A stretch of 64,000 nucleotides of DNA from Thermoanaerobaculia bacterium (GTDB taxonomy: Bacteria; Acidobacteriota; Thermoanaerobaculia; UBA5066). Made by a program: the position numbers and the translations under genes. Below the pieces are notes generated by a model. The model was not told the DNA's origin. It did no database searches and saw nothing but the letters and a program-made list of their open reading frames with translations. The DNA is taken from the NCBI GenBank assembly GCA_038245905.1, contig JBBRRY010000001.1:160001-224000 (forward strand), written 5' to 3'. Below, piece by piece: positions 9,130 through 60,630 of this stretch. Within the stretch, counting starts at the first letter, position 1; the number at the start of each line of letters is the position of its first letter.

Positions 9130-10965
9130 GTGGGCGCGCCTCCGGACCTCTCCCTCTATCCCGACCAACCGGGCATCTACCTCTACAAGGATGCGAAGGG
9201 GAAGATCCTCTATGTCGGGAAGGCGCGGTCGATCCGCAAGAGGCTGGCCTCTTATTTCGGCACGGCGCCGAAGCACCCGAAAACGGAAGCGCTTCTCGCC
9301 GACTTCGTGTCGATCGACACCGTCATCGCGAAGAACGAGAGCGAAGCCCTCGCACTCGAGAACGCCTACATCAAGAAGCACAAGCCGCGGTACAACATCA
9401 TGCTCCGCGACGACAAGACGTATCCGTACATCAAGGTCACGACGGGGGAGGACTGGCCGCGCGCCTTCGTGACCCGGCGCGTCCTCAAGGACGGCCACAG
9501 CTACTTCGGGCCCTTCATTCCCGCACGAACGTGTCGCGGCGCGATGAAGATGGTCCAGCGGATGTTTCAGGTCCGAACCTGCCGCATCGAGATCGACGGC
9601 AGACTCCCGCGCCCCTGCCTCTATTACGACATGCACGCCTGCCTCGGTCCGTGTGTCGCGGGCCTCACGACCAGGGCCGCATACGACGATGCCGTCAGGG
9701 ACGTCGTCCTCTTTCTCTACGGGCGAAACGAGGAGCTGCGCCCGCGCCTCGAGGAGAAGATGCGCGCGGCGGCGGGCGCCGAGAACTTCGAGATGGCGGC
9801 CGCCTATCGCGACTGCCTGCGCACGGTCGAGGAGCTCGCCGAGAAGCAGCGCGTGCAATACGTGTCGGGTGAGGATCTGGACGTGTTCGGTGATTTCTCC
9901 GACGGAGGCAGCGTCGCCGCCTCGGTCCTCTTCGTGCGCGGAGGCGTCGTCCTCGACTCGCGCGAGTACTTCTGGGAGAAGCTCGGCGACGTGCCACCGG
10001 AGGAATTCTGGGTCTCGCTTCTCTCGCAGTTCTACGACGGAACCACGTTCCTGCCGCGCGACGTGCTTCTGCCCGTCGACCTGCCCGACGAGGCGCTCGA
10101 ACCGATCGAGACATGGCTCACGGAGCGGAAAGGATCGCGCGTCACGATCAAGACGCCCCGCCGCGGGGCGGCATTCGAGCGTGTGCAGATCGCCCGCGAC
10201 AACGCGCGCCAGAACCATCTCCGGCGGTTTCGAAGGGCGCTGGAGCAGGGCGAGAAGGCGACGCTCGCGCTCGCCAAGGCGCTCGACCTCGACCGCCGCC
10301 CGTCCCGGATCGAGTGCTTCGACATTTCCCATTTGCAAGGAAACGAGACGTACGCGTCCTGCGTCGTCTTCGTCGACGGAGAGCCCGCGAAGGACGAGTA
10401 CCGCCTCTTCAAGATCGAGAGCCCGGGCATCGACGACTTCGCGTCGATCGCGGAGGCCGTATCGCGCCGCTACACGCGTGCGCGGGACGAAGGCAGGCCT
10501 CTGCCCGACCTGCTCCTGATCGACGGGGGCAAGGGGCAGCTCTCCGCGGCGCTCGCGGCGCTCGACCGCATCGGCATCGGGATGGCGGCAGCCGGGCTCG
10601 CGAAACGCGAAGAGCAGGTCTTCGTGCCCGGCCGTTCGGCCCCGATCGTGCTCGCAAGGACGAACGCGGGCCTCAAGCTCCTCCAGAGAGCGCGCGACGA
10701 AGCGCACCGATTCGGTCTGAAAACGCATCGCCGAGCGCGCGCCAAGCGCGCCCTCGAGAGCCCGCTTCTCGCGATTCCAGGACTCGGGTCCACGCGGGTC
10801 CGGATACTTCTCTCCGCCTTCGGGGGAGCCGAAGCCGTCTTCGCCGCGACGGACGAGGCCCTCGCGGCGGTCGCCGGGAAGTCCGTTGCCGCGACGATCG
10901 CGCGGTTTCGGCAGGGCTCTACCGGCGAAAGATCCACTGTCGCTGCTACACTTTCGAAGGAATGA
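9130..10965 (+). CDS. uvrC: excinuclease ABC subunit C
   Basis: GIY..YVGKA, KPRYNIMLRDDKTYPY, IECFDISH, PDLLLIDGGKGQL, RDEAHRF, HhH. Confidence 0.97.
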   Translation: MGAPPDLSLYPDQPGIYLYKDAKGKILYVGKARSIRKRLASYFGTAPKHPKTEALLADFVSIDTVIAKNESEALALENAYIKKHKPRYNIMLRDDKTYPYIKVTTGEDWPRAFVTRRVLKDGHSYFGPFIPARTCRGAMKMVQRMFQVRTCRIEIDGRLPRPCLYYDMHACLGPCVAGLTTRAAYDDAVRDVVLFLYGRNEELRPRLEEKMRAAAGAENFEMAAAYRDCLRTVEELAEKQRVQYVSGEDLDVFGDFSDGGSVAASVLFVRGGVVLDSREYFWEKLGDVPPEEFWVSLLSQFYDGTTFLPRDVLLPVDLPDEALEPIETWLTERKGSRVTIKTPRRGAAFERVQIARDNARQNHLRRFRRALEQGEKATLALAKALDLDRRPSRIECFDISHLQGNETYASCVVFVDGEPAKDEYRLFKIESPGIDDFASIAEAVSRRYTRARDEGRPLPDLLLIDGGKGQLSAALAALDRIGIGMAAAGLAKREEQVFVPGRSAPIVLARTNAGLKLLQRARDEAHRFGLKTHRRARAKRALESPLLAIPGLGSTRVRILLSAFGGAEAVFAATDEALAAVAGKSVAATIARFRQGSTGERSTVAATLSKE

Positions 10966-16791: not shown

Positions 16792-17193
16792 GACTCGGGC
16801 CGGACAGGCGGTCGCCGCTCTCGACGCTTCGGCGGAAGGAGGGGAGGAAAGTCCGGACTCCCGCGGGCAGCGTGCCGGAGAAATTCCGGTCGGGGTAACC
16901 CGAAGGAAAGTGGCACAGAGAACATACCGCCGACGCGCCGCAAGGCGCAGGTAAGGGTGAAAAGGTGCGGTAAGAGCGCACCGCGGTTCCGGCAACGGGA
17001 CTGGCAGGCGAAACCCCACGCGGAGCAAGGCCAAATAGGGTGATGGAAGGGGCGCCCGCCCTCGCGGCTTCGGCCGACGTCACCGGGTAGGTCGCTCGAG
17101 CCCGTCCGAAAGGCCGGGCCTGGAGGAATGACCGCCGGCCGGAAGGCGCGAGCCGACCGGTTACAGAATCCGGCTTATCGTCCGGCCCGAGTC
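16792..17193 (+). ncRNA. rnpB: RNase P RNA, bacterial type A
   Basis: GAGGAAAGTCCGGACT, GGTAAGGGTGAAAAGGTGCGGTAAGAGCGCAC, ACAGAATCCGGCTTA; P1 helix GACTCGGGCCGGAC/GTCCGGCCCGAGTC. Confidence 0.98.
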
Positions 17194-17721: not shown

Positions 17722-18777
17722 GTGACCGGACTTCGAAGGGGATCCCTGTATGCCGTTCTCCTTGGCGTCGCATCGTTCGGCGCCGCTCGAAGCGCCGGTG
17801 CCCAGGCGACCGGCATACTCAAACCCGGCAAGGCGATCGCGAAGGCCGCTCCGACCCCGACCCCCGCGAAGAAAGTCCTCGTGAAGCCGACAGTGACCAC
17901 GGGCGGCACCGCAAAGGTGATCTACCCGCCTGGGGCCGCCAAAGCCCGTGAAACGGCCTCGATCCGTGCATCGATTAACGCAGGAGCCGTTTCGACTCAC
18001 ACGAGCCCGGGAACCGTGAGGCTCAACCCGCTCAACAGGGCGCCCGGAATCGAGGGCGTGAACGGACAGGCGGGGGCGTTCACGGTCACGCCCGGGTCTC
18101 ACCTGACGATCAGCGGCTGGGAAATGGGCGACACCCTCGGGCAGGTCAACCTCATCGGCACCTTCCCGGGCGGCGCCGCGCCGCTCACAGTCGTGAACTG
18201 GACGGCCGGCACCATCACCGCAAATCTCCCGAACGGCCCGAACGTGCGTGGCGTCCTCGACCAGGCTGTCACGTTGCAGGTCGTGACGGGGGCGCGCCGT
18301 ACGTACGTCCACGCAGGCAACTTCCTCGCGGCGCGCGAGGAGATCACTGTGACGACGAACATCCCGCGCTTCGTCAGGTTACAGGCCGGAGGAACCTGGG
18401 GGGATTACGTGGGGATGGCCCCGAGTGGAGCCGTCTGGCGCGAGGAGCTCGGTCGGTCAATCACGTGCAAGGCGACTGGCGCGGACACCCTCACGGTCCT
18501 CGATCCCGGACGAGGTTTCGTCGTGACGTCGCTTGCCGCATCCTGGGGCCGCACAGACGCGGGAGACGGTGACCAGGGCGGCCGCGACGGCTCGCGTACG
18601 TACACGCCGGGCTACGATTTTGGAGAATGGCGCGGCGCCAGCATCCCGGTCCGATGGGGGGTTTGGCGAAGCCACAGCTCGCCGACGGCCTCCGGCATGC
18701 CTCCCGATGACGTTTGCCTTTCTTGGTACCAGATCTCCGTCACGGTGAGCGGCCCCGCGGGCGTCTCGCCCTTCTGA
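17722..18777 (+). CDS. secreted hypothetical protein with IPT/TIG-like segment
   Basis: AAAGGAG RBS; signal peptide; TPGSHLTISGWEMG..VNWTAGTITA resembles IPT/TIG. Confidence 0.7.
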   Translation: MTGLRRGSLYAVLLGVASFGAARSAGAQATGILKPGKAIAKAAPTPTPAKKVLVKPTVTTGGTAKVIYPPGAAKARETASIRASINAGAVSTHTSPGTVRLNPLNRAPGIEGVNGQAGAFTVTPGSHLTISGWEMGDTLGQVNLIGTFPGGAAPLTVVNWTAGTITANLPNGPNVRGVLDQAVTLQVVTGARRTYVHAGNFLAAREEITVTTNIPRFVRLQAGGTWGDYVGMAPSGAVWREELGRSITCKATGADTLTVLDPGRGFVVTSLAASWGRTDAGDGDQGGRDGSRTYTPGYDFGEWRGASIPVRWGVWRSHSSPTASGMPPDDVCLSWYQISVTVSGPAGVSPF

Positions 18778-19511: not shown

Positions 19512-20293
19512 AAGTCGTCGTCAAATCGGGAGCGCCGGGCGGGTTCACGGACTACGTCGCGCGATTTTCCGCTGGCCAGCCCATCTTCGAAGAGGGCGAG
19601 GTCGGCAACGAGATGTACGTCATCCAGTCCGGCACGGTCGAGATCTTCAAGCGCGCCAGGCGCGGCGAGGAAAAGCTTCTCGCGACGCTCGAGAAGGGTG
19701 ATTTCTTCGGGGAGATGTCGATTCTCGAGGACGTAGCCCGCACGGCCTCGGCCCGCGCGAAGGCGGACGTCGAGCTCGTCCGGATCAACCAGTCGACGTT
19801 CGACGAGATGCTCCGTCACAACGCGGAGATTGCCGTGCGCATGCTCCGCAAGCTGTCCCGAAGGCTGCGCGAGACGACGAAGCTCCTCGAGCAGTCCACC
19901 GGCGCGGCTCCCGCGCTCGACGAGAGCTCGTCCGACATCTTCGCGAAGGTCTCGGAGCGCCATGACATCTTCCGGCTCGTCGCCGCCGCCGGCGGCGAGG
20001 AGTTCTTCCTGAACCGCGACGGGGAGACCACCGTGGGGCGTGTCGACCCCGTCACGGGAATCAAGCCGGACGTGGACCTCGCAAACCTCGACACGCAGCG
20101 GTCGGTCTCGCGCCGGCACTCGAAGATCGTCCACGAGAAGGGCGAGTTCAGGGTCGTCGAGGAGATCGGCACGATGAACGGCACGTTCGTGAACGGCACG
20201 CGTATCGTCACGGGCCAGCCCGTGACGATCAAGGACGGGGACCGCACGCGCTTCGGGCTCGTGGACCTCACGTTCCGGGTCAGCAAGGCGTAG
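19508..20293 (+). CDS. cyclic nucleotide-binding + FHA domain protein
   Basis: GDFFGEMSIL..RTASA (cNMP); VGR, VSRRH, TMNGTFVNG (FHA). Confidence 0.92.
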   Translation: MKVVVKSGAPGGFTDYVARFSAGQPIFEEGEVGNEMYVIQSGTVEIFKRARRGEEKLLATLEKGDFFGEMSILEDVARTASARAKADVELVRINQSTFDEMLRHNAEIAVRMLRKLSRRLRETTKLLEQSTGAAPALDESSSDIFAKVSERHDIFRLVAAAGGEEFFLNRDGETTVGRVDPVTGIKPDVDLANLDTQRSVSRRHSKIVHEKGEFRVVEEIGTMNGTFVNGTRIVTGQPVTIKDGDRTRFGLVDLTFRVSKA

Positions 20294-20306
20294 GGGGCCC
20301 GTCCCG

Positions 20307-22412
20307 CTGCTCCCTTCTCTTCCATCGCTTGCCAGCCTGCCCGGCATCGGCCCCGCGCGGGCGAAGGAGCTGGCCGAAGCCGGGGTCGAGACGGCGCTCG
20401 ATCTCCTCCTTCACCTCCCGTTCCGCTACGAGGACCGCACCCGGATCGGGCGCATCGCCGATCTCGTTCCCGAGGGCCCCGCCACGACGGTAAAGGGCGA
20501 GGTTCTCTCCGCGAAACTCATCCGCACCCGTCGCCGCGGCTTCACGATCTTCGAGGCGATCCTCGACGACGGCTCGGGTCCTCTCAGAATCATCTTCTTC
20601 AACCAGCCCTACCTTCAGCGGTGGATGCTGCCGAAGAAGGTCTTCTGGGTTTACGGGGCTCCGACGCAGGCGGCGCGCTATCGGCGCGGGCTCGTCATGG
20701 AGAACCCGCAGATAGAAGAGTTCCTAGAAGGTGAAGAGGGGCGGGACCCCCTCAGCGTCGGCCGGGTCGTTCCCATTTACCGCAAGCTGCCGGGCCTGAC
20801 GCCCCGTGCACGCCGCACGGTCGTCTTCCACCTTATAAGAGACTTTGCAGACCACCTCCCCGAGCGTATGCCTCCGTCGAAGCGGGAGGGTCCGAAGCTG
20901 CCCGCTCTTTCCGAATCCCTCCAAGAAGCCCACTTCCCGGGCAGCAGCGGCGGGCCCGCCGACGCCTCGCCCTGGACCGAACGCACCTCGCCCTACCTCC
21001 ACCGCCTCGTGTACGAGGAGTTCCTCGAGTTCCAGGTAGGCCTTCAGCGGCGGCGCCGGGCGCGTGCGGCCGACCCGGCGCCCGTGCTCGCCGCGGACGA
21101 CGCCATTCGCGCGCGGCTCAAGGCGCTCCTCCCGTTCGCGCTCACCGGGGCGCAGAAGCGGGTGATCCGGGAGATCGGCGAGGACTTCCGGCGCGGCAGG
21201 CCGATGCGGCGGCTTCTCCAGGGCGACGTCGGGAGCGGCAAGACGATCGTCGCGGTGCTCTCGGCCGTGCTCGCCGCCGCGTGCGGGTACCAGACCGCGC
21301 TCATGGCACCAACCGAAATCCTCGCCGAGCAGCACGCGGCGACGATCTTCCGCCTGCTCGCGCAGTCGGGGCTCGTGCCCGCGCTCCTCACGGGTCGCGT
21401 CAAGGGAAAGGCCCGCGTCGCGCTTCTGGACCAGCTCGCGGGCGGGCGCGTCAACCTCCTCATCGGGACACACGCGCTCCTGGAAGATCCCGTGGCGTTT
21501 CTGCGGCTCGGACTCGTCGTCATCGACGAGCAGCATCGGTTCGGGGTGGCCCAGCGCACGGCGCTCGCGGCGAAAGCCGTCACGTCAGGCCGAAAGCCGC
21601 ACCTCCTCGTGATGTCCGCGACGCCGATCCCGCGCTCCCTGGCGCTCACGCTGTACGGCGATCTCGACGTGTCGACGCTCGACGAGAAGCCGCCCGGGCG
21701 GACTCCGGTGGCGACGCGCATTCTCCCGGAGTCCGAGCGTGGCGTCGTGTTCCGTGAGATCGAGGCCGAGATCCGGGCCGGGGGCCAGGCCTACGTCGTC
21801 GTTCCCCTCATCGAGGAGTCGGACAAGATCGAGGCGCGCGCGGTCGAAAAGCACGTCGAGGAGATCCGCCGGGCGCTGCGAGGGAGACGCGTCGGGGTCG
21901 TGCATGGCCGCATCCCGCCCGACGAGCGCGAACGAACGATGGGGGAGTTCGCGGCCGGCCGGCTCGATGTCCTCGCGGCGACCACCGTGATCGAGGTCGG
22001 CGTCGACGTGCCGAACGCCTCCTACATGCTGATCGAGAACGCCGAACGCTTCGGTCTCGCCCAGCTCCACCAGCTGCGCGGCCGCGTCGGGCGGGGACGA
22101 CGCGCCTCGCGCTGCGTGCTGCTGTTCGGCCCGGGGATCTCGCCGGAGTCGCGCGAGCGGCTCGCCGTTCTCGAGAGGACGGACGACGGATTCGTCGTGG
22201 CCGAAGAGGACCTGAAGCGCCGCGGCCCAGGCGACGCGCTCGGGACCCGCCAGAGCGGTATCCCGCTTTTCCGGGTCGGCGACCTGATCCGGGACCTGAA
22301 GTGGATGAAACTGGCGCGCGACGAAGCGAGTCGAATGCTCGCGGACGGCACGGACGCGCCGTTCCGCAACGCGCTCTTTCTCCGGGCGGCCGACCTGCCG
22401 GCAGGCGACTGA
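20307..22412 (+). CDS. recG: ATP-dependent DNA helicase RecG (inferred CTG start at 20307)
   Basis: LPGIGPARA, LPFRYEDR upstream and in frame; QGDVGSGKT, DEQHRFG, SATPIPR, QLRGRVGRG. Confidence 0.95.
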   Translation: MLPSLPSLASLPGIGPARAKELAEAGVETALDLLLHLPFRYEDRTRIGRIADLVPEGPATTVKGEVLSAKLIRTRRRGFTIFEAILDDGSGPLRIIFFNQPYLQRWMLPKKVFWVYGAPTQAARYRRGLVMENPQIEEFLEGEEGRDPLSVGRVVPIYRKLPGLTPRARRTVVFHLIRDFADHLPERMPPSKREGPKLPALSESLQEAHFPGSSGGPADASPWTERTSPYLHRLVYEEFLEFQVGLQRRRRARAADPAPVLAADDAIRARLKALLPFALTGAQKRVIREIGEDFRRGRPMRRLLQGDVGSGKTIVAVLSAVLAAACGYQTALMAPTEILAEQHAATIFRLLAQSGLVPALLTGRVKGKARVALLDQLAGGRVNLLIGTHALLEDPVAFLRLGLVVIDEQHRFGVAQRTALAAKAVTSGRKPHLLVMSATPIPRSLALTLYGDLDVSTLDEKPPGRTPVATRILPESERGVVFREIEAEIRAGGQAYVVVPLIEESDKIEARAVEKHVEEIRRALRGRRVGVVHGRIPPDERERTMGEFAAGRLDVLAATTVIEVGVDVPNASYMLIENAERFGLAQLHQLRGRVGRGRRASRCVLLFGPGISPESRERLAVLERTDDGFVVAEEDLKRRGPGDALGTRQSGIPLFRVGDLIRDLKWMKLARDEASRMLADGTDAPFRNALFLRAADLPAGD

Positions 22413-22452
22413 TGCCCCTCTCGTTCCGGGTTAACATCTCGGGCCGCGCGGT

Positions 22453-23115
22453 GTGACCGCGCTCGAAGGCGCCGTGGACCCGCAAAAAACCCTCGAAATC
22501 GTCATCCAGATCGTCGTGCTTCTGTTCGCCGTCTCGTTCCACGAGTCGGCCCACGGTTACGTGGCGATGAAGTGCGGCGACAACACGGCGCGCGACCTGG
22601 GGCGGATCACCATGAACCCGCTGAAGCACCTGGACCCGATCGGCAGCCTCTTATTCCCGGCGATGCTCGCGTTCTCGGGCCTGCCCGTCTTCGGCTGGGC
22701 GCGCCCCGTTCCGGTCTCGCTCAGGGGCGTCCCGAATCCGCGGCGGGCCAACCTCCTCGTCTCGGCCGCGGGGCCGCTCTCGAACCTCCTCCTGGCCATC
22801 GTGTTCGCGGCGGGCTTCGCGCTCATCAAGGGCATCGAGGTGCCTTCGAAGGCGAGCCCCCTCTACCCGCTGTCGCTGATTTTCGCGCTCTCGGTCCTCG
22901 TGAACGTCTCGCTGGCGATCTTCAATCTCCTGCCGATCCCGCCGCTGGACGGGTTCGGCGTCGTCGAGAGCCTCGCGCCGGCGTCCGCGCTGCCCGCCAT
23001 CATCTGGATGAGGCGATTCGGCTTCATCATCCTCGTCGTCGCGATGTTCACGGGCGCCCTCGGTTTCATCATGCGGCCCGTGCAGAACCTCGTGATCACC
23101 TGGCTGAGATCCTGA
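22453..23115 (+). CDS. site-2 protease family (M50)
   Basis: HESAH, AGPLSN, FNLLPIPPLDG. Confidence 0.93.
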   Translation: MTALEGAVDPQKTLEIVIQIVVLLFAVSFHESAHGYVAMKCGDNTARDLGRITMNPLKHLDPIGSLLFPAMLAFSGLPVFGWARPVPVSLRGVPNPRRANLLVSAAGPLSNLLLAIVFAAGFALIKGIEVPSKASPLYPLSLIFALSVLVNVSLAIFNLLPIPPLDGFGVVESLAPASALPAIIWMRRFGFIILVVAMFTGALGFIMRPVQNLVITWLRS

Positions 23116-24110
23116 TGTCTTCCTCTTCGAGGCAAATCGTTCTTTCCGGCCTGCGTCCCACGGGTCGCGTCCACCTCGGCAACTACTGGGGCGCCGTCAA
23201 GAACTGGGTCGACCTCCAGGAGACCTACGACTGCCGCTACTTCGTCGCCGATCTGCACGCGCTCACGACCGACTACGCCGACGCCTCCCAGATTCGGCAG
23301 GCCTCGCTGGATGCCGCGACGGACTGGCTGTCGGTCGGCCTCGATCCGGAGAAATCCGTCATCTTCGTGCAGTCGCGCGTCCCGCAGACGGCGGAGCTGG
23401 CGCTCGTCTTCGGGATGATCACGCCCCTCGGCTGGCTCGAGCGCGTGCCGACTTACAAGGAGCAGATCGAGCAGCTCCGGGAGCGCGACCTCGGGACTTT
23501 CGGGTTTCTCGGATATCCAGTTCTCATGACCGCCGATATCGCGCTCTATCGCGCGCACTTCGTGCCTGTCGGCAAGGACCAGGAGAGCCATCTCGAGATC
23601 TGCCGCGAGATCGTCCGGCGCTTCAACGGCTTCTACGGCGACGTCTTCCCCGAGCCGCGGGCGCTCTTCACCCAGACCCCGAAGGTGCCGGGCCTCGACG
23701 GCCGGAAGATGTCGAAGAGCTACGGAAACACGATCGCCCTCTCCGACCCGGCGGCCGACGTCGAGAAGAAGGTCATGGGCATGGTCACGGACCCGGGCCG
23801 CGCGCGCCGGTCCGACCCGGGGAATCCCGACGTCTGCAATCTCTATCCGTTCCACATCCTCTACTCGCCGCCCGAAGAGCAGAAGCAGGTGGATCTCGAG
23901 TGCCGTACGGCGGCGCGCGGCTGCGTGGACTGCAAGAAGCACCTCATCCGCAACATGAATGCCGCGTTGGAGCCGATCCGCCAGAAGCGCGCCGAGATCC
24001 TGGCGAAACCGGGCTATGTGAGGGACGTGCTCGAAACGGGAAACGAAAGAGCGAGAAATATTGCTTCGGAAACGATGGAGACAGTCTCCGACGCAATGGG
24101 GTTGCTGTGA
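23115..24110 (+). CDS. trpS: tryptophan--tRNA ligase
   Basis: SGLRPTGRVHLGNY, YPVLMTADI, VPVGKDQ, KMSKS. Confidence 0.97.
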   Translation: MSSSSRQIVLSGLRPTGRVHLGNYWGAVKNWVDLQETYDCRYFVADLHALTTDYADASQIRQASLDAATDWLSVGLDPEKSVIFVQSRVPQTAELALVFGMITPLGWLERVPTYKEQIEQLRERDLGTFGFLGYPVLMTADIALYRAHFVPVGKDQESHLEICREIVRRFNGFYGDVFPEPRALFTQTPKVPGLDGRKMSKSYGNTIALSDPAADVEKKVMGMVTDPGRARRSDPGNPDVCNLYPFHILYSPPEEQKQVDLECRTAARGCVDCKKHLIRNMNAALEPIRQKRAEILAKPGYVRDVLETGNERARNIASETMETVSDAMGLL

Positions 24111-24155
24111 GAGCCGTCGTTCTTCACCTTCTAAGAAATCTTCGGTCGTTCTTCC

Positions 24156-24968
24156 ATGGCTGAAGGCATTCGCATCCCAGTCCCCGCCGGCGCGGACCTC
24201 ATGCAGCCCTACCCGGTGAAGCTGCCGATGTTCGAGGGGCCGCTCGATCTCCTCCTCCATCTCATCCGCAAGAACGAGGTGGACCTCCGAAACCTCCCGG
24301 TGGCCGATATCTGCCGGCAGTACCACGAGTACATCGTCCTCATGGTCGAGCTCGACCTCGAGGTCGCGGCCGAGTTCCTGTACGTCGAAGCGATGCTTCT
24401 CCACATCAAGTCGCAGCTCGTGCTCCCACGGGCGGCCGCCGTGGAGGGCGAGCCCCTCGAGGATCCGCGCGACGAGCTCGTGAGGCGTCTCCTCGAGTAC
24501 CGCAAGTACAAAGGCGTCGCCGAGTCGCTGCACGAGATGGAGGCCGTCCGCCTTGGCCTCTGGAGCCGGCCGCCGACGAGGGTCGAGGTAGGGGGAGGGG
24601 AAGCCGAGGAGACCGACCTCTCAGAGGTCTCCCTTTTCGATCTCCTGGCCTTCTTCAAGGGTGCCGTCGACCGATACCGCGCCCAGCATCCGCCATCGAT
24701 GGAGATCGCCCACCAGAAGTTCTCCATCAAGGAGAAGATGGAGCAGATGCTCGCGCGCATCAAGGCCGGGACCGGCAACGTACCGCTTTCGGAAGTGTTC
24801 CGCGGCCTCTCGGGACGCGGCGAGGCGATTGCCATCTTCCTCGCCGTCCTCGAGCTCCTGAGGCTCCGCGTCGTCCGCGCGCGCCAGGACGGCGAATTCA
24901 ACGAGATTTATCTGGACCCGACGGGTGAGTCGGCATCGCTCGAGGGCTACGAGGAGGCCTACCGGTGA
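24156..24968 (+). CDS. scpA: segregation and condensation protein A
   Basis: FEGPLDLLLHLI, FLAVLEL. Confidence 0.95.
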   Translation: MAEGIRIPVPAGADLMQPYPVKLPMFEGPLDLLLHLIRKNEVDLRNLPVADICRQYHEYIVLMVELDLEVAAEFLYVEAMLLHIKSQLVLPRAAAVEGEPLEDPRDELVRRLLEYRKYKGVAESLHEMEAVRLGLWSRPPTRVEVGGGEAEETDLSEVSLFDLLAFFKGAVDRYRAQHPPSMEIAHQKFSIKEKMEQMLARIKAGTGNVPLSEVFRGLSGRGEAIAIFLAVLELLRLRVVRARQDGEFNEIYLDPTGESASLEGYEEAYR

Positions 24969-25585
24969 CCACGCATGTGGCGCTCCTCGAGGCCCTCCTC
25001 TTCGCGTCCGGGAAGTCCGCGACCGTCGAGCGTCTCGCCGAGGCCGCGGAAATCACGAAGGAAGAGGTCGAAGCCGCCCTCGACGCGCTCGAGAGCGCCT
25101 GCGAGGCCGAAGGGCGGGGCGTACGCGTGGACCGCGTCGCCGGTGGCGCGCGCCTCGTGTCGCGCAACGAGTACGACCTGCCCGTCCGAAGCCTCCTCGG
25201 GCTCGAGGGCAAGAACAAGCTCTCGATCCCGAGCCTCGAGGTGCTGTCGATCGTGGCGTACCGGCAGCCGGTCACGGCGCCCGAGATCGCGGAGCTTCGC
25301 GGCGTGAGCTCGGCGTCCTCGCTGCGCACCCTCCTCGACAAGAAGCTCATCACGACGGCCGGCCGCAAGGAAGTCGTCGGGACCCCGTTCCTGTACAAGA
25401 CGACGAAAGAGTTCCTCGTGCACTTCGGCCTGGCCGACCTGAAGGACCTCCCGCGCCCGGAGGACCTCGACGCGCTTTATGGGGTCGAGACGAATACGGC
25501 GCAGACCGAGCTGTTTCCGGAGCAGAATTCTGCTGAAGAAGAGAAGGAAACAGGAATAGATAGAGAGAAAGAGGAAGATTCTTAG
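24965..25585 (+). CDS. scpB: segregation and condensation protein B
   Basis: LEALLF, LEVLSIVAYRQPVT, LYKTTKEFLVHFGL. Confidence 0.95.
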   Translation: MTTHVALLEALLFASGKSATVERLAEAAEITKEEVEAALDALESACEAEGRGVRVDRVAGGARLVSRNEYDLPVRSLLGLEGKNKLSIPSLEVLSIVAYRQPVTAPEIAELRGVSSASSLRTLLDKKLITTAGRKEVVGTPFLYKTTKEFLVHFGLADLKDLPRPEDLDALYGVETNTAQTELFPEQNSAEEEKETGIDREKEEDS

Positions 25586-25640
25586 AATGGTTAATTCCCT
25601 TCCCTCTTCTAAGCAAATCTTTCTTTCTCTTTTCCTATTT
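25536..25640. repeat. inverted pair of the dispersed TTCTWAGAA motif with purine-rich left and pyrimidine-rich right flanks
   Basis: GAAGATTCTTAGAA (25574) ... TTCTAAGCAAATCTTTC (25608). Confidence 0.8.
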
Positions 25641-25651
25641 GGACGTGTGCC

Positions 25652-26479
25652 ATGACCGCTGAGCGTCTCCAGAAGATTCTTTCCGCCGCCGGCATCGCCT
25701 CGCGGCGTGCGGCCGAACAGATCATCCTCGAGGGCCGCGTCACGGTGAACGGCCACAAGGTGAAGGAGCTCGGCGTCAAGGCCGACATCACGAAGGATCA
25801 CGTCAAGGTGGATGGAAAGCTCGTGCGCATCGCGGTCGCGCGGCGCTACATCCTCATGAACAAGCCCAGGGGTCTCATCGTCACGCGCGAAGACCCGGGC
25901 GGCATTCCGACCGTCTTCGAGCTCCTGAAAGGCCGCGTGGGGGAGCGTGTCGTGGCCGTGGGACGGCTCGACGTGGAATCCGAAGGGCTCCTTATCCTCA
26001 CGGATGACGGCCCGCTCGTGCACAAGCTGACGCATCCGTCCGGCGGCTGCCGCAAGGAATACGAGGTCAAGGTTTCCGGCGTGCCGACGCCCGCGCAGCT
26101 GGAAAGGCTTCGGCGAGGCGTCACGCTTCCCGACGACGGCGCGCGGACGTCGCCCGCCGACATCGAGCTCGAGAAGACGACTCCGGAGAAGAACGGAGCC
26201 GGCGGAAACGCGTGGCTCAAGGTGACTCTTGGCGAGGGACGCTCGCGGCAGGTGCGTCGCATGTTCGACCTCGTCGGGCATCCCGTGACGAAGCTCCGCC
26301 GGGTCGCGATCGGCCCGATCCGCGATGCGAAACTCCCGCCCGGCGCCTTCCGCGACCTGTCGCCCGAAGAAATAATGGCGCTGCGCGCGATCCGGCCGGC
26401 GCCGCCGCGCCCGCGGATTGCACGTCATCGGACACACGGAGCGCGGGGGTCCGCTACGCCGACGAGAACCGGGGCTTGA
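25652..26479 (+). CDS. rluB: RsuA/RluB-family pseudouridine synthase
   Basis: ERLQKILSAAGIASRR (S4), VGRLD, EGRSRQVRRM; follows scpAB. Confidence 0.88.
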   Translation: MTAERLQKILSAAGIASRRAAEQIILEGRVTVNGHKVKELGVKADITKDHVKVDGKLVRIAVARRYILMNKPRGLIVTREDPGGIPTVFELLKGRVGERVVAVGRLDVESEGLLILTDDGPLVHKLTHPSGGCRKEYEVKVSGVPTPAQLERLRRGVTLPDDGARTSPADIELEKTTPEKNGAGGNAWLKVTLGEGRSRQVRRMFDLVGHPVTKLRRVAIGPIRDAKLPPGAFRDLSPEEIMALRAIRPAPPRPRIARHRTHGARGSATPTRTGA

Positions 26480-27162
26480 AGGCGCTCGTCGTCGCGATCG
26501 ACGGGCCCTCCGGAGTGGGGAAGTCCACGGTCGGCAAGGCGCTCGCCGCCCGCCTCGGCGTGCCCTACCTGGACACGGGTGCGATGTACCGTGCGGTCGG
26601 ACTCGCCGTGAAACGAAAGGGGATCGCCCTTCCTCTCGAGGACCCCGCCGCCGTCGTCGGCATCGCCTCGGGTGTGGACGTCCGCGTGACCGGGAGCGCG
26701 GAAGACGCGCGGACGTGGCTGAACGGGGAGGACGTCTCGAAGGAGATCCGGACGCCCGAGATCTCGAAGTACGCGTCGGCCGTTTCCGCCCTGCCGGGAG
26801 TCCGGCGCCGGCTCGCTGGCATGCAGCGCAGCCTCGCGCTGGAAGGGGGCGGCGTGCTCGAGGGCCGGGACATCGGCACGAAGGTCGTTCCCGAAACGCC
26901 GCACAAGTTCTTTCTCACAGCTTCCCCTGCCGTGCGGGCCCACCGCCGCTTCGCGGAGCTGTCGGCGAAGAACTCGCTCGAGACATACGAGCAGGTCCTC
27001 GCGGACATGGAAGCGCGGGACCATGCGGACGCGACGCGAGCCGACTCGCCCCTCACGGACGACGGGACGTACGCCCGGCTGGACACGTCGGAGCTCTCGG
27101 TAGCGGAAGTCGTGGAGCGAGTGCTTTTGGCCGTCGAACGACCGGTTACGCCGGCCGGTTGA
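26476..27162 (+). CDS. cmk: cytidylate kinase
   Basis: IDGPSGVGKST, DTGAMYR, EGRDIGT; TTGA overlap. Confidence 0.96.
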   Translation: MKALVVAIDGPSGVGKSTVGKALAARLGVPYLDTGAMYRAVGLAVKRKGIALPLEDPAAVVGIASGVDVRVTGSAEDARTWLNGEDVSKEIRTPEISKYASAVSALPGVRRRLAGMQRSLALEGGGVLEGRDIGTKVVPETPHKFFLTASPAVRAHRRFAELSAKNSLETYEQVLADMEARDHADATRADSPLTDDGTYARLDTSELSVAEVVERVLLAVERPVTPAG

Positions 27163-27268
27163 CCGGCCTCCCCCCGCCCGTCTAACATCAAGGGTTCCGG
27201 TCGCTTATGCGTTTGCCACGAGGCGATCCAGGCGATCCAATATCAAGCCCGCGAAGGAGCACGCGTAC

Positions 27269-29014
27269 ATGTCGCCAAGGGACCCGAAGAACGACGGTGG
27301 CCAGATGGCCGATGAGGGCGCGCAGGACGGAGAGTTTGCGCGTCTTCTCGCCGAGAGCGAGCGCTCGCTCAAGGAGGGAGAGCTCATCCGGGGCCGTGTG
27401 CTTCAGGTGACTGCCGACGAGATCCTCGTCGACATCGGCTACAAGTCGGAAGGGATGATTCCCCGCTCCGAGTTCCAGCACATGCCGGCCGACCGCCTTC
27501 CCCATCCGGGACAGGAGATCGAGGCCGTGCTCGAGCGCACCGAGGGGCCCAACGGCTACGTCGTTCTCTCCTACGAGAAGGCCCGCCGCGGGAAGGCGTG
27601 GGATGTGGTCGAACAGGCGTTCGCCACGAATTCGTCCGTCAAGGGGCGCGTCCTCGAGCGCGTGAAGGGGGGCCTTTCCGTCGACATCGGCGTCCGCGCT
27701 TTCCTGCCGGGCTCGATCGCCGACTCGCGCCCTCTCAAGAACCTGGACGTCCTCAAGGGGCGCGAGCTCGAGTTTCGGGTCGTCTCGCTCGACAAGAAGC
27801 GCGGCAACATCGTGTTGTCGCGCAAGGCGATCCTCGACGAGGTCGCCGAGGTCAAGAAGAAGGAAGCCTCCGAGGCCCTCGCGGACGGCCGCGTTCTCAA
27901 GGGTGTCGTCAAGAATCTCACCGACTACGGGGCATTCGTGGACCTGGGCGGAATCGACGGCCTCCTCCATGTGACCGACATGACGTGGGGCCGCCTCGCG
28001 CACCCCTCGGACGCCGTGCACGTGGGACAGGAAGTCGACGTGAGGGTCCTTCGCTTCGAGGAAGCGACGGGCCGTATTTCCCTCGGTATGAAGCAGCTGA
28101 AGCCCGACCCGTGGCACGACCTGCCGGCCCACTATCCGGTGGGAGCCCGCGTCCGCGGCAAGGTCGTCTCCCTGACCGACTACGGCGCCTTCGTCGAGCT
28201 CGAGGAGGGCGTCGAGGGCCTCATCCACGTCTCCGAGATGTCGTGGACGAAACGAGTCAAGAACCCCTCGAAGCTCCTGAACGTGGGCGACACGATCGAG
28301 GCCGTCATCGCGGACGTGAATCCCGAGACGCGCCGACTGTCCCTCTCGCTCCGCGCGACGGAACCGAACCCGTGGGAGCAGCTCGCCGAGAAGTTCCACA
28401 TCGGCGACCGCATCACGGGCACGGTCCGCAATCTCACGGACTTCGGCGCCTTCGTCGAGATCGAGGAGGGGATCGACGGTCTCATCCACGTCTCCGACAT
28501 GTCCTGGGGCCGCCGCGTGAAGCACCCGTCCGAGGTCCTGAAGAAGGGCGACGAGGTGCAGGCCGTGCTCACGGCGATCGACGTCGAGAACCGCCGAATC
28601 AGCCTGTCGATCAAGGAATTCCGCCCGAACGAGTGGGAGGAATTCTCCGCGAAGCACCAGCCCGGAGACGTCGTCGACGGCACCGTGGCGAAGGTGGCCG
28701 AGTTCGGCGTCTTCGTGCGGCTGCCCGAAGGCCTCGAGGGCCTGATGCACGTCTCCGAAACGCCGCTCGCGCGTGGAGAGAAGCCGGCATCGCACTATGA
28801 GGAAGGCGACGCCGTTCGCGTCCGCGTCCTCCGGATCGAGCCGGCCGAGCAGCGCATCGGTCTTTCGTCCCGCGACGTGGAGCAGCCCGCGAGAAACGAG
28901 ACCCATGCGCCGGACGAGGACGTGGCGACCGAGCCCAAGGAAAGCATGGCGGAACACACGACGGCGGAGGCGGCCGAAAAAGCCGTTCCGGCCGGAACCG
29001 ATCCGCACGAGTAA
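27269..29014 (+). CDS. rpsA: 30S ribosomal protein S1
   Basis: Repeated S1 domains (DYGAFV..GLIHVS); AAGGAG RBS; follows cmk. Confidence 0.97.
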   Translation: MSPRDPKNDGGQMADEGAQDGEFARLLAESERSLKEGELIRGRVLQVTADEILVDIGYKSEGMIPRSEFQHMPADRLPHPGQEIEAVLERTEGPNGYVVLSYEKARRGKAWDVVEQAFATNSSVKGRVLERVKGGLSVDIGVRAFLPGSIADSRPLKNLDVLKGRELEFRVVSLDKKRGNIVLSRKAILDEVAEVKKKEASEALADGRVLKGVVKNLTDYGAFVDLGGIDGLLHVTDMTWGRLAHPSDAVHVGQEVDVRVLRFEEATGRISLGMKQLKPDPWHDLPAHYPVGARVRGKVVSLTDYGAFVELEEGVEGLIHVSEMSWTKRVKNPSKLLNVGDTIEAVIADVNPETRRLSLSLRATEPNPWEQLAEKFHIGDRITGTVRNLTDFGAFVEIEEGIDGLIHVSDMSWGRRVKHPSEVLKKGDEVQAVLTAIDVENRRISLSIKEFRPNEWEEFSAKHQPGDVVDGTVAKVAEFGVFVRLPEGLEGLMHVSETPLARGEKPASHYEEGDAVRVRVLRIEPAEQRIGLSSRDVEQPARNETHAPDEDVATEPKESMAEHTTAEAAEKAVPAGTDPHE

Positions 29015-29053
29015 CCAGGAGCGGATCATGACCGGCGTCCGGGGATTGACCGC

Positions 29054-29959
29054 GTGAAGCGCTCCACCGTCGCTTGGATCGTCGCGGCCGTCGGTTTCGC
29101 GTTCCTGCTCCTGCTCGTCTCGGCGGTGGCTCTTGTGTTTTCACCGCGTGGCGGCCCACCGTCCTTCGCCCTCTCCGGGCGCGTGGGGGTCGTCGATATC
29201 GAGGGAATCATCCTGTCCGCCGATCGCTTTCGCGAAACGCTCGCCAAGTTCAAGTCCGCGCCCGGCGTCAAGGCCGTGGTCGTGCGCATCAACTCGCCTG
29301 GCGGCGGCGTGGCCGCGTCCCAGGAGCTCTTCAGCGAGATCCGCCGCTTCCGGAAGGAGACCGGCAAGCCGGTCGTCGTCTCGATGGAATCGGTCGCGGC
29401 GTCCGGCGGTTACTACGCCGCCGTGGCGGCCGACCGAATCGTCGCGAACCCCGGCACGATCACCGGGTCGATCGGCGTGATCATGCAATGGATGAACTAC
29501 GGGGACCTCCTCGAATGGGCGAAAGTGCGTACGGTGACGCTCAAGAGCGGCGCGCTGAAGGACGCGGGCAATCCGTCCCGGCCCCTCACAGACGAGGAAC
29601 GGAAGTATTTCGAAGACCTCATCCAGGCGCTGCGCCTGCAGTTCCAGGCGGCCGTGGCTGAAGGCCGCAAAGGACGACTGAAGCCCGAGGCGCTCGCCCA
29701 CATGTCGGATGGGCGCGTCGTAACAGGAGAAGAGGCGGTCGCGTTGGGACTCGTCGACGAGATCGGCGACTACCGCGATGCGGTCGACCGCGCCGCGCGC
29801 CTCGCAAACCTCGCGGTGCCCGCGGAGGTCTGGCATCCGCGGCCCACGAGACCAGGACTCATCGAGCTCTTGACGGGACCTTCGGAATCGACGTGGACGG
29901 GGCGCCTACTTTCGGGCGCACCGGTGGGGGGCGGATGGAACGTCTTCTTTCTGTGGTAG
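29054..29959 (+). CDS. sppA: signal peptide peptidase SppA (S49)
   Basis: RINSPGG, AASGGYY, TGSIGV. Confidence 0.94.
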   Translation: MKRSTVAWIVAAVGFAFLLLLVSAVALVFSPRGGPPSFALSGRVGVVDIEGIILSADRFRETLAKFKSAPGVKAVVVRINSPGGGVAASQELFSEIRRFRKETGKPVVVSMESVAASGGYYAAVAADRIVANPGTITGSIGVIMQWMNYGDLLEWAKVRTVTLKSGALKDAGNPSRPLTDEERKYFEDLIQALRLQFQAAVAEGRKGRLKPEALAHMSDGRVVTGEEAVALGLVDEIGDYRDAVDRAARLANLAVPAEVWHPRPTRPGLIELLTGPSESTWTGRLLSGAPVGGGWNVFFLW

Positions 29960-30330
29960 GCCGCGCGGAAGGCACGACGACGAAGGCGGACCTCGTCGAA
30001 CAGGTCGCCCACGCCACCGATCTGACAAAAAAGCAGGCGGAGATCATCGTCGACTCGGTGTTCGACGGCATCATCGCCTCGCTCCGGTCGGGCGAGAAGA
30101 TCGAGCTCCGGGGATTCGGCAGCTTCCGGCTGCGCCAGAGGGGCGCGCGCATCGCGCGAAACCCCAAACGCAGCGGCGTGAAGGTCATGGTGCCCCCGAA
30201 GCGAGTGCCGTACTTCAAGCCGGGCAAGAAGCTGAAAGAGCTGATCAATCAGACGACACCCGAGGCGCCCGCTTCGTCCGCCGCACCCGGTGTGCCGGGA
30301 ACACGGACTCCGGGAGCCGGCCCGGGCTGA
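29953..30330 (+). CDS. ihfB: integration host factor beta / HU family protein (start GTG 29953 or ACG 29977)
   Basis: TKADLV, IELRGFGSF, ARNPK, PYFKPGK. Confidence 0.88.
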   Translation: MVGRAEGTTTKADLVEQVAHATDLTKKQAEIIVDSVFDGIIASLRSGEKIELRGFGSFRLRQRGARIARNPKRSGVKVMVPPKRVPYFKPGKKLKELINQTTPEAPASSAAPGVPGTRTPGAGPG

Positions 30331-30818
30331 TGGAGGCGCTTTTCACGCCGTGGCGCGCGGCGTACCTTACGGGTGACGGGGAGCCCGTGACCGGGTGCCT
30401 GTTCTGCGTCCTTCCGGGCCGAACAGACGAGGACGGCCTCATCGTTCACCGGGGCCAGGCGGTGTACGCCGCTCTGAACCGGTACCCGTACACAAACGGG
30501 CACCTGATGCTCGCACCCTTCGCGCACCGCGCGTCGCTATCGGCGATGACCTCGAAAGAGCGTCACGAGCTCGTGGATCTCGCCGCGGCCGCCGAGGAGA
30601 TCCTCGCCGAGGCGTACCGTCCGGACGGCTTCAACGAGGGAATCAATATCGGCCGCAGCGCGGGCGCGGGAGTCGCGGACCACGCGCATTTGCACGTCGT
30701 CCCTCGCTGGGACGGCGACACCAACTTCCTGACGGTCCTCGGCGCCACGCGCACGATTCCCGAGGAGCTCGGGGCGACTCGAACGAAGCTCGCTGCCGCG
30801 TTCGCCCGCCGCCCGTGA
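30330..30818 (+). CDS. HIT family hydrolase
   Basis: PWR..Y, CLFC, NRYPYTNGH, HAHLHVVPRW. Confidence 0.93.
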   Translation: MEALFTPWRAAYLTGDGEPVTGCLFCVLPGRTDEDGLIVHRGQAVYAALNRYPYTNGHLMLAPFAHRASLSAMTSKERHELVDLAAAAEEILAEAYRPDGFNEGINIGRSAGAGVADHAHLHVVPRWDGDTNFLTVLGATRTIPEELGATRTKLAAAFARRP

Positions 30819-31084
30819 AGCGCCCGGATGGAGAGATCGTCCTCCTGGTGCTCGCGTCGGCCGTCCTTCCGGGACTCGGCCACGCCCTTCTCGGCCGGAG
30901 AGCCAGGGGCAGCGCCTTTTTCGCCGTCGTCCTCGCGACCCTCTTCGTGGGACTCCTCCTCGAGCCCCGGAATCCGACCGCGGCCACGTACGAGTACGGT
31001 CGCACGTATCTTCTCGTCGCCGCGATCATGCAGCTCCTCCTCGTCCTCGACGTGCTGGAGCGCGCATCCGGGAGGCGCGGATGA
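30815..31084 (+). CDS. small membrane protein (DUF6677-like)
   Basis: LPGLGH..LGR, YEYG; three hydrophobic segments; coupled overlaps. Confidence 0.65.
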   Translation: MKRPDGEIVLLVLASAVLPGLGHALLGRRARGSAFFAVVLATLFVGLLLEPRNPTAATYEYGRTYLLVAAIMQLLLVLDVLERASGRRG

Positions 31085-31263
31085 GTCTCGCCTCCGACCA
31101 TTTTCCGCTTCTCGTCCTCCTCGCGGCGCTCATGGCCTCGTTCGCGGCGCTGCTCTGGAAGGATGACCCGAATGACGTGCGCCGCTTCTTCCTGAAGGCG
31201 CTTCTCGGTCTGGTGGGCTCGGCGGTCGCTCTCGGATTCCTCTTTCAGGCGGTGTCACGTTGA
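31081..31263 (+). CDS. small two-helix membrane protein
   Basis: 60 aa, two hydrophobic segments, overlaps at both ends. Confidence 0.65.
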   Translation: MSLASDHFPLLVLLAALMASFAALLWKDDPNDVRRFFLKALLGLVGSAVALGFLFQAVSR

Positions 31264-32429
31264 AGCTCCTCGTCGTGGCCGGAGAGGTCTCCGGCGACCA
31301 GCACGCGAGCGCGCTCCTCGCCGCCCTCAGGGACCGAGTGCCGTCTCTCGTTGTATTTGGAGTCGGAGGCGAAAACTGCCGGGGACAGGGCATGCGCCTC
31401 GTCGCGCACCAGAAGGACCTCGCCGTCGTCGGCCTCGTCGAGGCGCTTTCGAAGCTGCGCTTCGCGCGAAGGCTCATCCGGACGCTCGTCAAGGAAGCCG
31501 TTGCGGAGAAGGCCGACGTCGCGGTTCTCGTCGATTCCCCGGACTTCAATCTCCCGCTCGCTCGTCGGTTGACGAAGGCAGGAATCCCGGTCGTCTTCTA
31601 TGTGTCGCCCCAGGTGTGGGCGTGGCGGAGCTCCCGCGCCACGACGATCGCCCGCCTCGGCCGCGCGGTCCTCGTCCTGTTTCGCTTCGAAAAGCGGTGG
31701 TGGGACGCCCGCGGGCTTGGCGAACGGGTCACCTGGGTGGGCCACCCGCTCGTGGATCGGGCGGCCTTGGAGCTTGCCATCCCGGCGGCGCCGCCGGTCT
31801 CGGGGCCTTCAGCGGCGCCGCGGCGTATCGTCCTGATGCCCGGCTCGCGCACGGGGGAGATCCGGCGCAACCTGCCCGTCCTGCAGGGCGCGGTGAGAAT
31901 TCTCAGGCAGAGTCATCCAAACCTCGAGGTTGTCCTCGTGCAGGCCGACTCGATTCCGGCAGACCTCTTGAAGGATGTGGCCGGCTCGGACTTTGCCTCG
32001 TGGAAAATCGCGAAGGGCCCGCACCTCGCGCTGCTCGCTGCGGCGGACGTCGTTCTGGTGGCGTCCGGGACCGCGACCGTGGAGGGACTTCTCGCGCGCG
32101 CTCCCATGGTCGTCGTCTACCGCGTGCACCCCCTGACATTCTGGCTCGCGCGCCGGATCGTGAAGGTCCCGTTCGTGGCGATGGCGAATCTCGTGAGTGA
32201 CGACCGCTCGGGGATCGGAGCGGTGCCGGAGCTGCTACAGGGTGACGCTACCCCCGAGCGAATCGCGTTCGAAGCCGCCCGGTTTCTGGACGATCCCGGC
32301 CTCTCCGCACGGACACGCGCGCGCCTGGCGCGCGGTCTGGAGGAACTGGGGCCTCCCGGGGCGCCGGGCCGGACGGCCGATGCGGTTCTCGCCGCACTCC
32401 GGCCGGCCGGCACGGGGAGTCTCGCGTGA
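31260..32429 (+). CDS. lpxB: lipid-A-disaccharide synthase
   Basis: AGEVSGD, DSPDFN, SPQVWAWR, VGHPL, PGSR, SGTAT. Confidence 0.96.
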   Translation: MKLLVVAGEVSGDQHASALLAALRDRVPSLVVFGVGGENCRGQGMRLVAHQKDLAVVGLVEALSKLRFARRLIRTLVKEAVAEKADVAVLVDSPDFNLPLARRLTKAGIPVVFYVSPQVWAWRSSRATTIARLGRAVLVLFRFEKRWWDARGLGERVTWVGHPLVDRAALELAIPAAPPVSGPSAAPRRIVLMPGSRTGEIRRNLPVLQGAVRILRQSHPNLEVVLVQADSIPADLLKDVAGSDFASWKIAKGPHLALLAAADVVLVASGTATVEGLLARAPMVVVYRVHPLTFWLARRIVKVPFVAMANLVSDDRSGIGAVPELLQGDATPERIAFEAARFLDDPGLSARTRARLARGLEELGPPGAPGRTADAVLAALRPAGTGSLA

Positions 32430-35229: not shown

Positions 35230-35239
35230 GAGGATTGCA

Positions 35240-35863: not shown

Positions 35864-35887
35864 ATTTTCACGGAGGACAACCTCTTC

Positions 35888-36118: not shown

Positions 36119-36125
36119 TCTTCGG

Positions 36126-40877: not shown

Positions 40878-40958
40878 TCGAAGAAATCTCTCTTCGAAGC
40901 TTGCCTCGGACGCGCCTCGCTGTCGAGAGACTCGCGGGAGGTCTGCTACAGTCTCTTC

Positions 40959-55668: not shown

Positions 55669-55788
55669 ATTCTTTCCTAACTCATTCTAAGAAAATAAGT
55701 TAGATGCAGAAACGTTGCTGCTCGTTTGCGGGCTGACCTTGCTTTATCCCTTATCTCTCCCTAGATTGAGTCCGGGAGAACCCCCATT

Positions 55789-58198: not shown

Positions 58199-58242
58199 TG
58201 TGTTCTGGCCTCGGAATGAGAGCGCTTCGGCTACGATCTGCC

Positions 58243-60620: not shown

Positions 60621-60630
60621 CGTCTTCGTC

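Follow-up and report, generated by a model that had tools for sequence, protein, structure and literature searches.

A head-to-head paired, AT-rich DNA word in conserved genes of a Thermoanaerobaculia genus

Introduction

Short words repeated many times in one bacterial chromosome have been described in several forms. REPINs, which are inverted doublets of repetitive extragenic palindromic (REP) sequences, are extragenic; each REP forms a hairpin, copies of recent date have the spacer in common, and a gene for the REP-associated tyrosine transposase (RAYT) is present, while Rickettsia palindromic elements are insertions of whole units with a conserved interior. Uptake signal sequences (USS) and DNA uptake sequences (DUS) occur in hundreds of copies, many of them coding and located at poorly conserved amino acids, according to Findlay and Redfield (PMC2817400). 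The cyanobacterial word HIP1 (GCGATCGC) is hyper-abundant within genes, an excess taken as a sign that selection acts on the DNA itself (PMC5861425). The account of the Ssn nucleases and their NTS/SRM repeats describes a sequence-specific enzyme that reads hundreds of repeat copies and affects transformation (Chenal et al. 2025, PMC11893778). In the present work, we describe an AT-rich word that recurs as head-to-head pairs in a GC-rich Thermoanaerobaculia bacterium, starting from two AT-rich patches within the gene recG. The window is the whole stretch analysed, 64,000 nucleotides of the forward strand of contig JBBRRY010000001.1 (assembly GCA_038245905.1, positions 160,001 to 224,000). An earlier sequence-only reading had proposed that a motif overrides codon bias inside conserved genes, that it is written into existing reading frames through codon choice, and that it fits a protein-binding site better than a simple insertion. 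No published account of the word was found in the literature searched on its core letters and on Thermoanaerobaculia repeats, uptake and MITEs (transposable elements of the miniature inverted-repeat class).

Results

The paired word in recG

The recG gene (20352-22409, forward strand) was identified with the NCBIfam model NF008168 at 774 bits against a cut-off of 718; its open frame extends from 20226, and the true start is not fixed. Both codon runs quoted by the sequence-only reading stand in the recG frame, at 20712-20735 and 20829-20849, and the two AT-rich patches are confirmed as arms that together make up a single copy of a paired word. Arm 1 (20711-20740) lies on the reverse strand, with TTCCTAGAA as the core on the forward strand and a profile match of 11.5 bits at 20716-20737, whereas arm 2 (20823-20849) is forward and degenerate. 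Together, they form an inverted repeat with its CACC ends pointing inward at a distance of about 110 bases, and the spacer between them (20741-20822, forward strand) is native recG coding sequence that aligns to motif-free genera without gaps. The core of arm 2 in this genome reads CTTATAAGA, with CTA changed to ATA, and the profile does not detect the arm here.

Conservation was followed in 22 same-genus recG segments, one from this genome and the others from 21 relatives whose protein identity is 80-90%; the frameshifted or poorly aligned loci L023 and L024 were kept out of the codon displays, and the partial matches L025 and L027-L029 were left unaligned. The exact form CTTCTAAGA was present at the arm 2 codons in 19 of the 22 segments and TTCTTAGAA at arm 1 in 12. 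Orthologs had been proposed as a check on whether the motif is kept at synonymous positions, and this is what the alignment displays: the rare codons of arm 2 persist across the genus (CTA in 21/22, AGA in 22/22), while the codons for Arg, Thr and Val beside them are free to vary. The outgroup codon alignment was composed of four of the 22 genus rows and seven outgroup rows. Against four motif-free genera, arm 2 had no gap in 36 cells, and its residues read F-H-L-L-R-D-F-A in our genome as opposed to A-G-L-L-D-S-L-A in G210. Arm 1 had gaps in 6 of 36 cells, corresponding to 3-4 added codons, and adjoins an indel hot spot. Beside this arm, at codons matching 20712-20745, relatives (loci L003, L013, L016, L018-L022) carry among them 12-base tandem duplications of the purine tail, a second arm copy 30 bases off and Gly/Lys/Glu-rich low-complexity insertions, so that the site is a tolerant loop.

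Form, copy number and pairing across the genome

The genome (labelled G000) is a 3.80 Mb assembly of 113 contigs with a GC content of 67.8% and a completeness of 96.4%, and the window is situated on its contig C1. The 9-letter core TTCTAAGAA, counted with its complement, was present in 149 copies, and the 14-letter form TCACCTTCNAAGAA in 54 copies against none for the backwards control. Alignment of the copies revealed an asymmetric consensus of about 25-30 bases in which a pyrimidine-rich left flank is followed by CACC, a near-palindromic core, a short A run of variable length and a pyrimidine-rich tail. The highest-scoring copy of the window, TCTTCACCTTCTAAGAAATCTTC at 24121-24143, reached 19.8 bits. 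A profile built in two iterations from the genome's own copies, with the reversed genome as a decoy, returned 504 arms at a threshold of at least 8 bits compared with 27 in the decoy, and 399 sites compared with 10 at a threshold of at least 10 bits. This amounts to roughly one arm per 7.5 kb and one pair per 15 kb. Clustering was mild, with a variance-to-mean ratio of 1.5 per 20 kb. The densest region, on contig C14, holds 15 arms within 15 kb, and no centromere-like pile of arms was seen genome-wide.

Arms are arranged in a strongly oriented manner at short range. Among neighbours at most 400 bases apart, 139 had the reverse-forward arrangement with CACC inward (-+), while the opposite one (+-) occurred 10 times, ++ 15 times and -- 17 times; 278 of the 504 arms belong to -+ pairs at the strict threshold, which differs from the single copies that suffice as USS/DUS. 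Pair distances range over about 30-250 bases, with a core-to-core median of 103 and quartiles of 80 and 138. Beyond 400 bases, the four arrangements were equally frequent and no orientation bias was detected, including any -+ excess at 400-6000 bases, so there is no arm-gene-arm composite. Core-to-core distances did not display a 10-11 base phasing. They did peak at a period of 9 (p about 4e-4, uncorrected for the 15 periods tested), possibly a codon effect. The spacers are ordinary DNA of 70% GC, unrelated to one another; only 3 of 139 were alike, in a manner resembling paralogy.

Codon usage and reading frames at the arms

A codon-usage gene caller predicted 3205 genes covering 93% of the DNA. 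It shortens some gene starts, including those of recG and the PabB-like gene described below, and a few 5' arms may consequently count as intergenic. On this gene set, 385 of the 504 arms (76%) are located in genes, with a flat distribution along them, and 119 between genes. Arm density was 0.81 per kb in convergent gaps, 0.59 in tandem gaps, 0.25 in divergent gaps and 0.109 in genes.

The proportion of codons ending in G or C (GC3) stood at 0.458 for the codons of arms (n=3737), compared with 0.869 for all others (n=1,177,265). Severe dips, defined as at most two G/C-ending codons in eight, overlapped arms in 181 of 560 cases, with arms filling 0.35% of such windows. The proposal that the motif overrides codon bias is thus borne out, and because the dips concentrate on arms, the contrary possibility that they are no commoner at motif sites than elsewhere fails. 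The arms draw on the rarest codons of the genome: for Leu CTA (0.9%) and TTA (0.3%), for Arg AGA (2.9%), for Ile ATA (1.6%) and for Ala GCA (5.1%). Arms were present in all three frames and on both strands. Two of the frames are such that the word would yield TAA or TAG, and there the T was replaced by G or A in 78/80 and 52/52 arms and was never T, whereas T is the most frequent letter at this stop-prone position in the other frames and between genes.

Origin by substitution and retention

The gene order of the 64 kb is kept throughout the family, and over the syntenic stretch the profile found 14-21 arms in each of five genomes of the genus, three weak ones in the sister-genus genome G171 and none in G075, G123, G130 and G210. 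These last four represent the motif-free genera that served as outgroups for codon alignments. Five of the seven in-gene arms of the window (recG arm 2, both arms of the PabB-like gene and both yicC arms) had 0-1 gap cells per 36-40 outgroup cells. Arm columns had a GC3 of 0.482 among genus members and 0.915 among outgroups, while the remainder of the same five genes had 0.862 and 0.910, respectively. Amino acid identity to the outgroups was 51/212 (0.24) in the arms compared with 3902/6105 (0.64) outside the arms of these genes. Where the amino acid is the same, codons were identical in 167/224 cases (0.746) in the arms as opposed to 3871/6365 (0.608) elsewhere, in five window genes of five same-genus genomes; this excess exists despite the arms using the rarest codons and supports the constraint at the nucleic acid level that had been supposed.

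Judging from these alignments, the arms arose mostly by point substitution, altering amino acids as well as codons. Two parts of the sequence-only reading accordingly need qualification. The view that the arms are not simple insertions holds for the five nearly gap-free arms and the native recG spacer, but recG arm 1 adds 3-4 codons and an arm in the gene for MiaB lies in an added tail. Likewise, rare codons are indeed used to write the word into existing frames; codon choice is only part of it, however, as amino acids were replaced too. Overall, what that reading observed is confirmed, and its interpretation is partly supported.

Whole units also vary at two places. One is the uracil-DNA glycosylase gene (36126-36860; family 4), in whose linker four relatives have a full arm-spacer-arm unit, while most outgroups have a short linker; our genome lacks the spacer and the right arm through a deletion in this part of the gene (around 36215-36370), and G003 lacks the left arm and the spacer. 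In the gap before the gene at 58243, arm pairs differ by species, and a pair shared by G003 and G011 has like arms around a spacer that has diverged beyond recognition. Words of other spelling (dialects) in related genera were considered and rejected: the syntenic 38-64 kb of G075, G130 and G210 contain two or three AT-rich patches each, and that of G123 contains 21, with no recurrent word.

Distribution among related genomes

In 201 genomes of the class, a 10-letter core occurred in 56-206 copies in 11/11 genomes of the genus (backwards control, 8-28), in 31 copies in G171, in 132 in G182 and in 0-3 in most others. The TCACCTTCNAAGAA form had 36-153 copies in 11/11 genus genomes, 22 and 3 in two sister-genus genomes, none in G182 and at most 4 in every other genome of the class sample. 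Among 41 genomes of the family, this form had 36-153 copies in 12/12 members of the genus and 1-22 in 8/8 members of the sister genus; the 21 genomes of eight other family genera gave a single match in total, and the control gave none in all 41. G025, G030 and G197 enter these tallies as near-zero counts only. Among the genomes searched, the word therefore belongs to a single genus of GC-rich bacteria from sediment and soil, with a sparse presence in the sister genus, and is not class-wide. G171 carries a degenerate arm 1 of the PabB-like gene and lacks the recG and yicC arms, a state that fits gradual accumulation. The 10-letter copies of G182 were rejected as the same element, since they belong to a different repeat family at contig ends, in another context and with no copy of TCACCTTCNAAGAA. 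This longer repeat family (loci L031-L046, at contig ends of G182, G062, G162 and G115) belongs to another family of the class and has the same 10 letters beside repeats of the GTCATCC(C/T)GAGC type.

Other arms and features of the window

The further AT-rich patches named by the sequence-only reading, in yicC, pabB and the trpS 3' end, also turned out to be arms or degenerate arms. YicC and TrpS pass curated cut-offs, while the supposed pabB falls below the equivalog cut-offs and is only PabB-like. Arm 1 of this PabB-like gene (4373-4395, reverse strand, 13.5 bits) is present in 5/5 same-genus genomes and degenerate in sister-genus G171, with 0/36 outgroup gap cells. Arm 2 (about 4559-4588, forward strand) has the variant core TTCGCAGAA where TAA would fall in frame, is conserved at the DNA level in 5/5 same-genus genomes and has 1/40 gap cells. 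The degenerate arm at the 3' end of trpS (about 24047-24075, reverse strand) is AT-richer than the same codons of the four motif-free genera and involves no indel; its partner is the strong forward-strand arm at 24121-24143 in the gap downstream of trpS. In yicC, a weak reverse-strand arm read by eye (34628-34652) stays under the profile threshold. The two forward-strand yicC arms lie at 34730-34749 (10.2 bits, no indel, 1/36 gap cells, kept in the genus) and 34820-34838 (12.1 bits, 0/36 gap cells).

An intergenic pair at 25575-25621 consists of a reverse arm (25575-25590) and a forward arm (25603-25621), with an RNA fold z of -2.74, and a second pair in a convergent gap at 60556-60616 consists of arms at 60556-60576 (reverse) and 60596-60616 (forward), with an RNA fold z of -3.85. 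The profile further identified a pair upstream of the gene at 40959 (40796-40892; reverse arm 40796-40814, forward arm 40870-40892). The MiaB pair (55598-55695) has its reverse arm (55598-55618) in the C-terminal tail of MiaB, which outgroups lack (30/30 gap cells), and its forward arm (55683-55695) in the following gap. A forward-strand intergenic arm of 16.4 bits at 58097-58117 stands in the gap whose arm pairs vary among species. Weak species-specific profile matches that map to window positions 9900, 26989 and 38988 were chance-like on inspection and were discarded.

The same gap contains, at 58170-58200 and upstream of the gene at 58243, an AT-rich box composed of TTTAACATAATAAAT, then A or C, then TTATCGGAC. 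It is kept nearly letter for letter in all nine relatives aligned (9/9), motif-free genera included, and is the main AT-rich patch of the outgroup regions. The box probably serves as an operator or promoter and has no relation to the arms. Another AT-rich segment, 35725-35751, lies inside the gene at 35240-35860, and its reverse complement recurs in G171, G075 and G123; rather than an arm, this is a patch conserved for coding or regulation. A complete bacterial class A RNase P RNA was found at 16796-17193 (264 bits). Finally, three called genes at 773-2516 and 17722-18774 have no counterpart in the syntenic regions of 10 relatives and contain no arms; on the basis of this comparison, they are possibly strain-specific insertions.

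Discussion

The explanation we favour, to which we would give about an even chance, is that of a DNA-level recognition word, recognised arm by arm and working as a head-to-head pair at a loose distance, which accumulated by point change and was then kept. Each arm would be an asymmetric site read as double-stranded sequence by one sequence-specific factor, and this factor would need, or would work best with, two head-to-head copies with CACC inward and pyrimidine tails outward, about 30-250 bases apart. By analogy, such a distance rule resembles that of enzymes needing two inversely oriented sites. If the importance of the word lies in the DNA itself, the lineage would have accumulated it wherever proteins tolerate it, namely in gaps, loops, linkers and tails, and would then have retained it against the strong GC3 bias, placing G or A instead of T where TAA or TAG would fall in frame. 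Candidate gains to the cell would be a self-mark, an uptake signal or a chromosome-organising site. The analysis shows the anatomy of the word, its numbers, its origin by substitution, its conservation, its clade limits and the independent variation of paired arms; that a protein reads the word, that its two arms cooperate and what the cell gains is what we infer. The arms did not covary, with 1779 matching positions compared with 1761 +/- 19 in partner-shuffled pairs (361/2000 shuffles reach the observed value), a test that has little power where both arms are the consensus. In-gene pairs, moreover, folded no better as RNA than their shuffles, with z -1.73 for recG (12/200 shuffles as good) and z -0.20 for trpS, and these two results together favour reading as sequence over a hairpin.

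Apart from this limit of the covariation test, several observations weigh against a recognition word of the kind proposed. No reader was found among the Y1 transposase, ComEC, GIY-YIG and N6/N4 methyltransferase families searched. ComEC does not track the word, being present in 37/41 family genomes whether carriers or not, and neither do the N6/N4 methyltransferases, with 0 matches in this genome and 0/8 in the sister genus. The Y1/RAYT transposase family PF01797 likewise had 0 matches in the 96.4% complete G000, while the control search matched 6 of 14 known genomes. Concerning nucleases of the Ssn type, the single PF01541 (GIY-YIG) match of the search, at 9169-9396, lies inside a 611-residue UvrC frame (9130-10962), so that no such gene was found. 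The constraint is not absolute either, as our genome has lost both the core of recG arm 2 and the right arm of the uracil-DNA glycosylase linker. Two intergenic pairs do fold well, at 60548-60622 (z -3.85, 0/200 shuffles as good) and 25556-25640 (z -2.74, 2/200), and the enrichment of arms in convergent over divergent gaps would be expected of an element acting in the transcript.

These last two points bear on the explanation that the arms pair in RNA, purine-rich first and pyrimidine-rich second on either strand, forming a long stem that terminates, stabilises or directs cleavage. Tandem gaps are also richer in arms than divergent ones, and a terminator-like hairpin was found within one intergenic spacer, on contig C19. 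We nevertheless regard a transcript-level role as improbable, given the failure of in-gene pairs to fold better than shuffles and the lack of covariation. The +- arrangement would form an equal stem yet is 14 times rarer, 76% of the arms are in genes and evenly spread along them, and no Rfam 15 family was placed on the arms at gathering score, RNase P RNA being the only match of the window. Invertons within genes, in which recombination would take place at the facing arms and inversion of the DNA between them would recode the protein, would account for segments of 30-250 bases flanked by inverted repeats inside genes. Flipping the segments in silico, however, left 46/100 in-gene pairs free of stops compared with a proportion of 0.587 in 3000 length-matched random segments. 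This explanation is very improbable. Assembled contigs of four sequencing runs (X1, X2, X4, X6) were compared over 20001-40000, and among the best-supported joints, a list that leaves 245 others aside, there was no strand-changing joint at an arm. Some contig pieces of these runs end near arms, as expected of repeats.

Two further explanations concern how a word spreads. As an uptake signal, the word would be the preferred substrate of the DNA uptake machinery in a lineage capable of natural transformation and would have accrued by molecular drive without benefit to the carrier genes. Its behaviour resembles that of USS/DUS as far as Findlay and Redfield describe them, including the low match of arms to motif-free genera (0.24 compared with 0.64 in the rest of the genes), its density is graded between sister genera, its arms originated by point substitution, and ComEC is present. 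We consider this unlikely, though not negligible. USS/DUS need no partner, whereas head-to-head pairing is near-obligatory here even in genes (139 vs 10); the density is about 10 times lower than that of USS/DUS (1,471 USS in H. influenzae, PMC2817400); USS frames go with preferred codons in that source, and arms go with the rarest; and ComEC does not separate carriers from non-carriers. Relics of mobile elements of the MITE, REPIN or Rickettsia palindromic element type, with arms as terminal inverted repeats that were inserted in frame and then tolerated, would explain hundreds of inverted doublets of one word, the whole arm-spacer-arm units present or missing by species in the uracil-DNA glycosylase linker and the gap before 58243, and the added codons at recG arm 1 and the MiaB arm. 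There is little probability in this origin, since the recG, PabB-like and yicC arms flank native, alignable gene sequence with no indel and stand at identical codons across the genus. The spacers of the 139 pairs are unrelated, no -+ excess at 400-6000 bases could bracket a transposase gene, and neither a Y1/RAYT transposase nor an Ssn-type nuclease was found in the genome.

A bolder possibility, which we offer tentatively and hold to be somewhat doubtful, is that the arms are sites of an undescribed genome-wide system in which the asymmetric word is read only as two head-to-head copies at a loose distance. An enzyme of such a system might slide or translocate between inversely oriented sites, whereupon the chromosome would be recognised as self; alternatively, an uptake or recombination machine might require the site pair. 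If this were true, the need for the signal would be strong enough to rewrite amino acids in several hundred housekeeping proteins throughout a genus. The paired word would in itself be a clear case of a DNA-level signal that prevails over protein sequence as well as codon bias in the conserved genes of an uncultured acidobacterial genus. The family constitutes a natural experiment, with syntenic genera without arms, a sister genus with few and a genus with hundreds, and an identified reader could reveal a new kind of site-pair recognition. From a practical point of view, arms account for one in three sharp GC3 dips within genes, break short-read assemblies, and mimic insertions or horizontal transfer in composition scans.

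Comparison with known systems

When compared to REPINs and REP doublets with RAYT, the word is similar in forming inverted doublets of one short sequence, in numbering hundreds per genome and in its vertical inheritance within one lineage. In contrast to them, 385 of its 504 arms are not extragenic but in genes, its spacers are unrelated, and a Y1 transposase was not found. It shares with the Rickettsia palindromic elements the property of repeat DNA that is read through as protein in conserved genes; unlike these elements and MITEs, what lies between its arms is native sequence of the host gene, and most arms came without an indel, so that the arms do not behave as inserted units, except in two linker or intergenic cases that do.

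The likeness to the USS of Pasteurellaceae and the DUS of Neisseriaceae extends further, the word showing the over-representation and lineage specificity expected of them. In common with them (PMC2817400), it is a short, lineage-specific word in hundreds of copies on both strands, with a density that varies between related lineages, and with many in-gene copies that lie at poorly conserved amino acids and arose by point change, in addition to inverted pairs between genes. Our word differs in being paired head to head even in genes, in its greater length and in being about 10 times sparser, and its AT-richness in a GC-rich genome entails the use of the rarest codons. HIP1 is a perfect 8-base palindrome that is unpaired and occurs more than once per gene on average in some cyanobacteria, whereas the word is asymmetric, about 27 bases long and arranged in oriented pairs at roughly one pair per 15 kb. 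The Ssn system is comparable in having hundreds of copies of one repeat; it differs in its GIY-YIG nuclease, a gene of which type was not found here.

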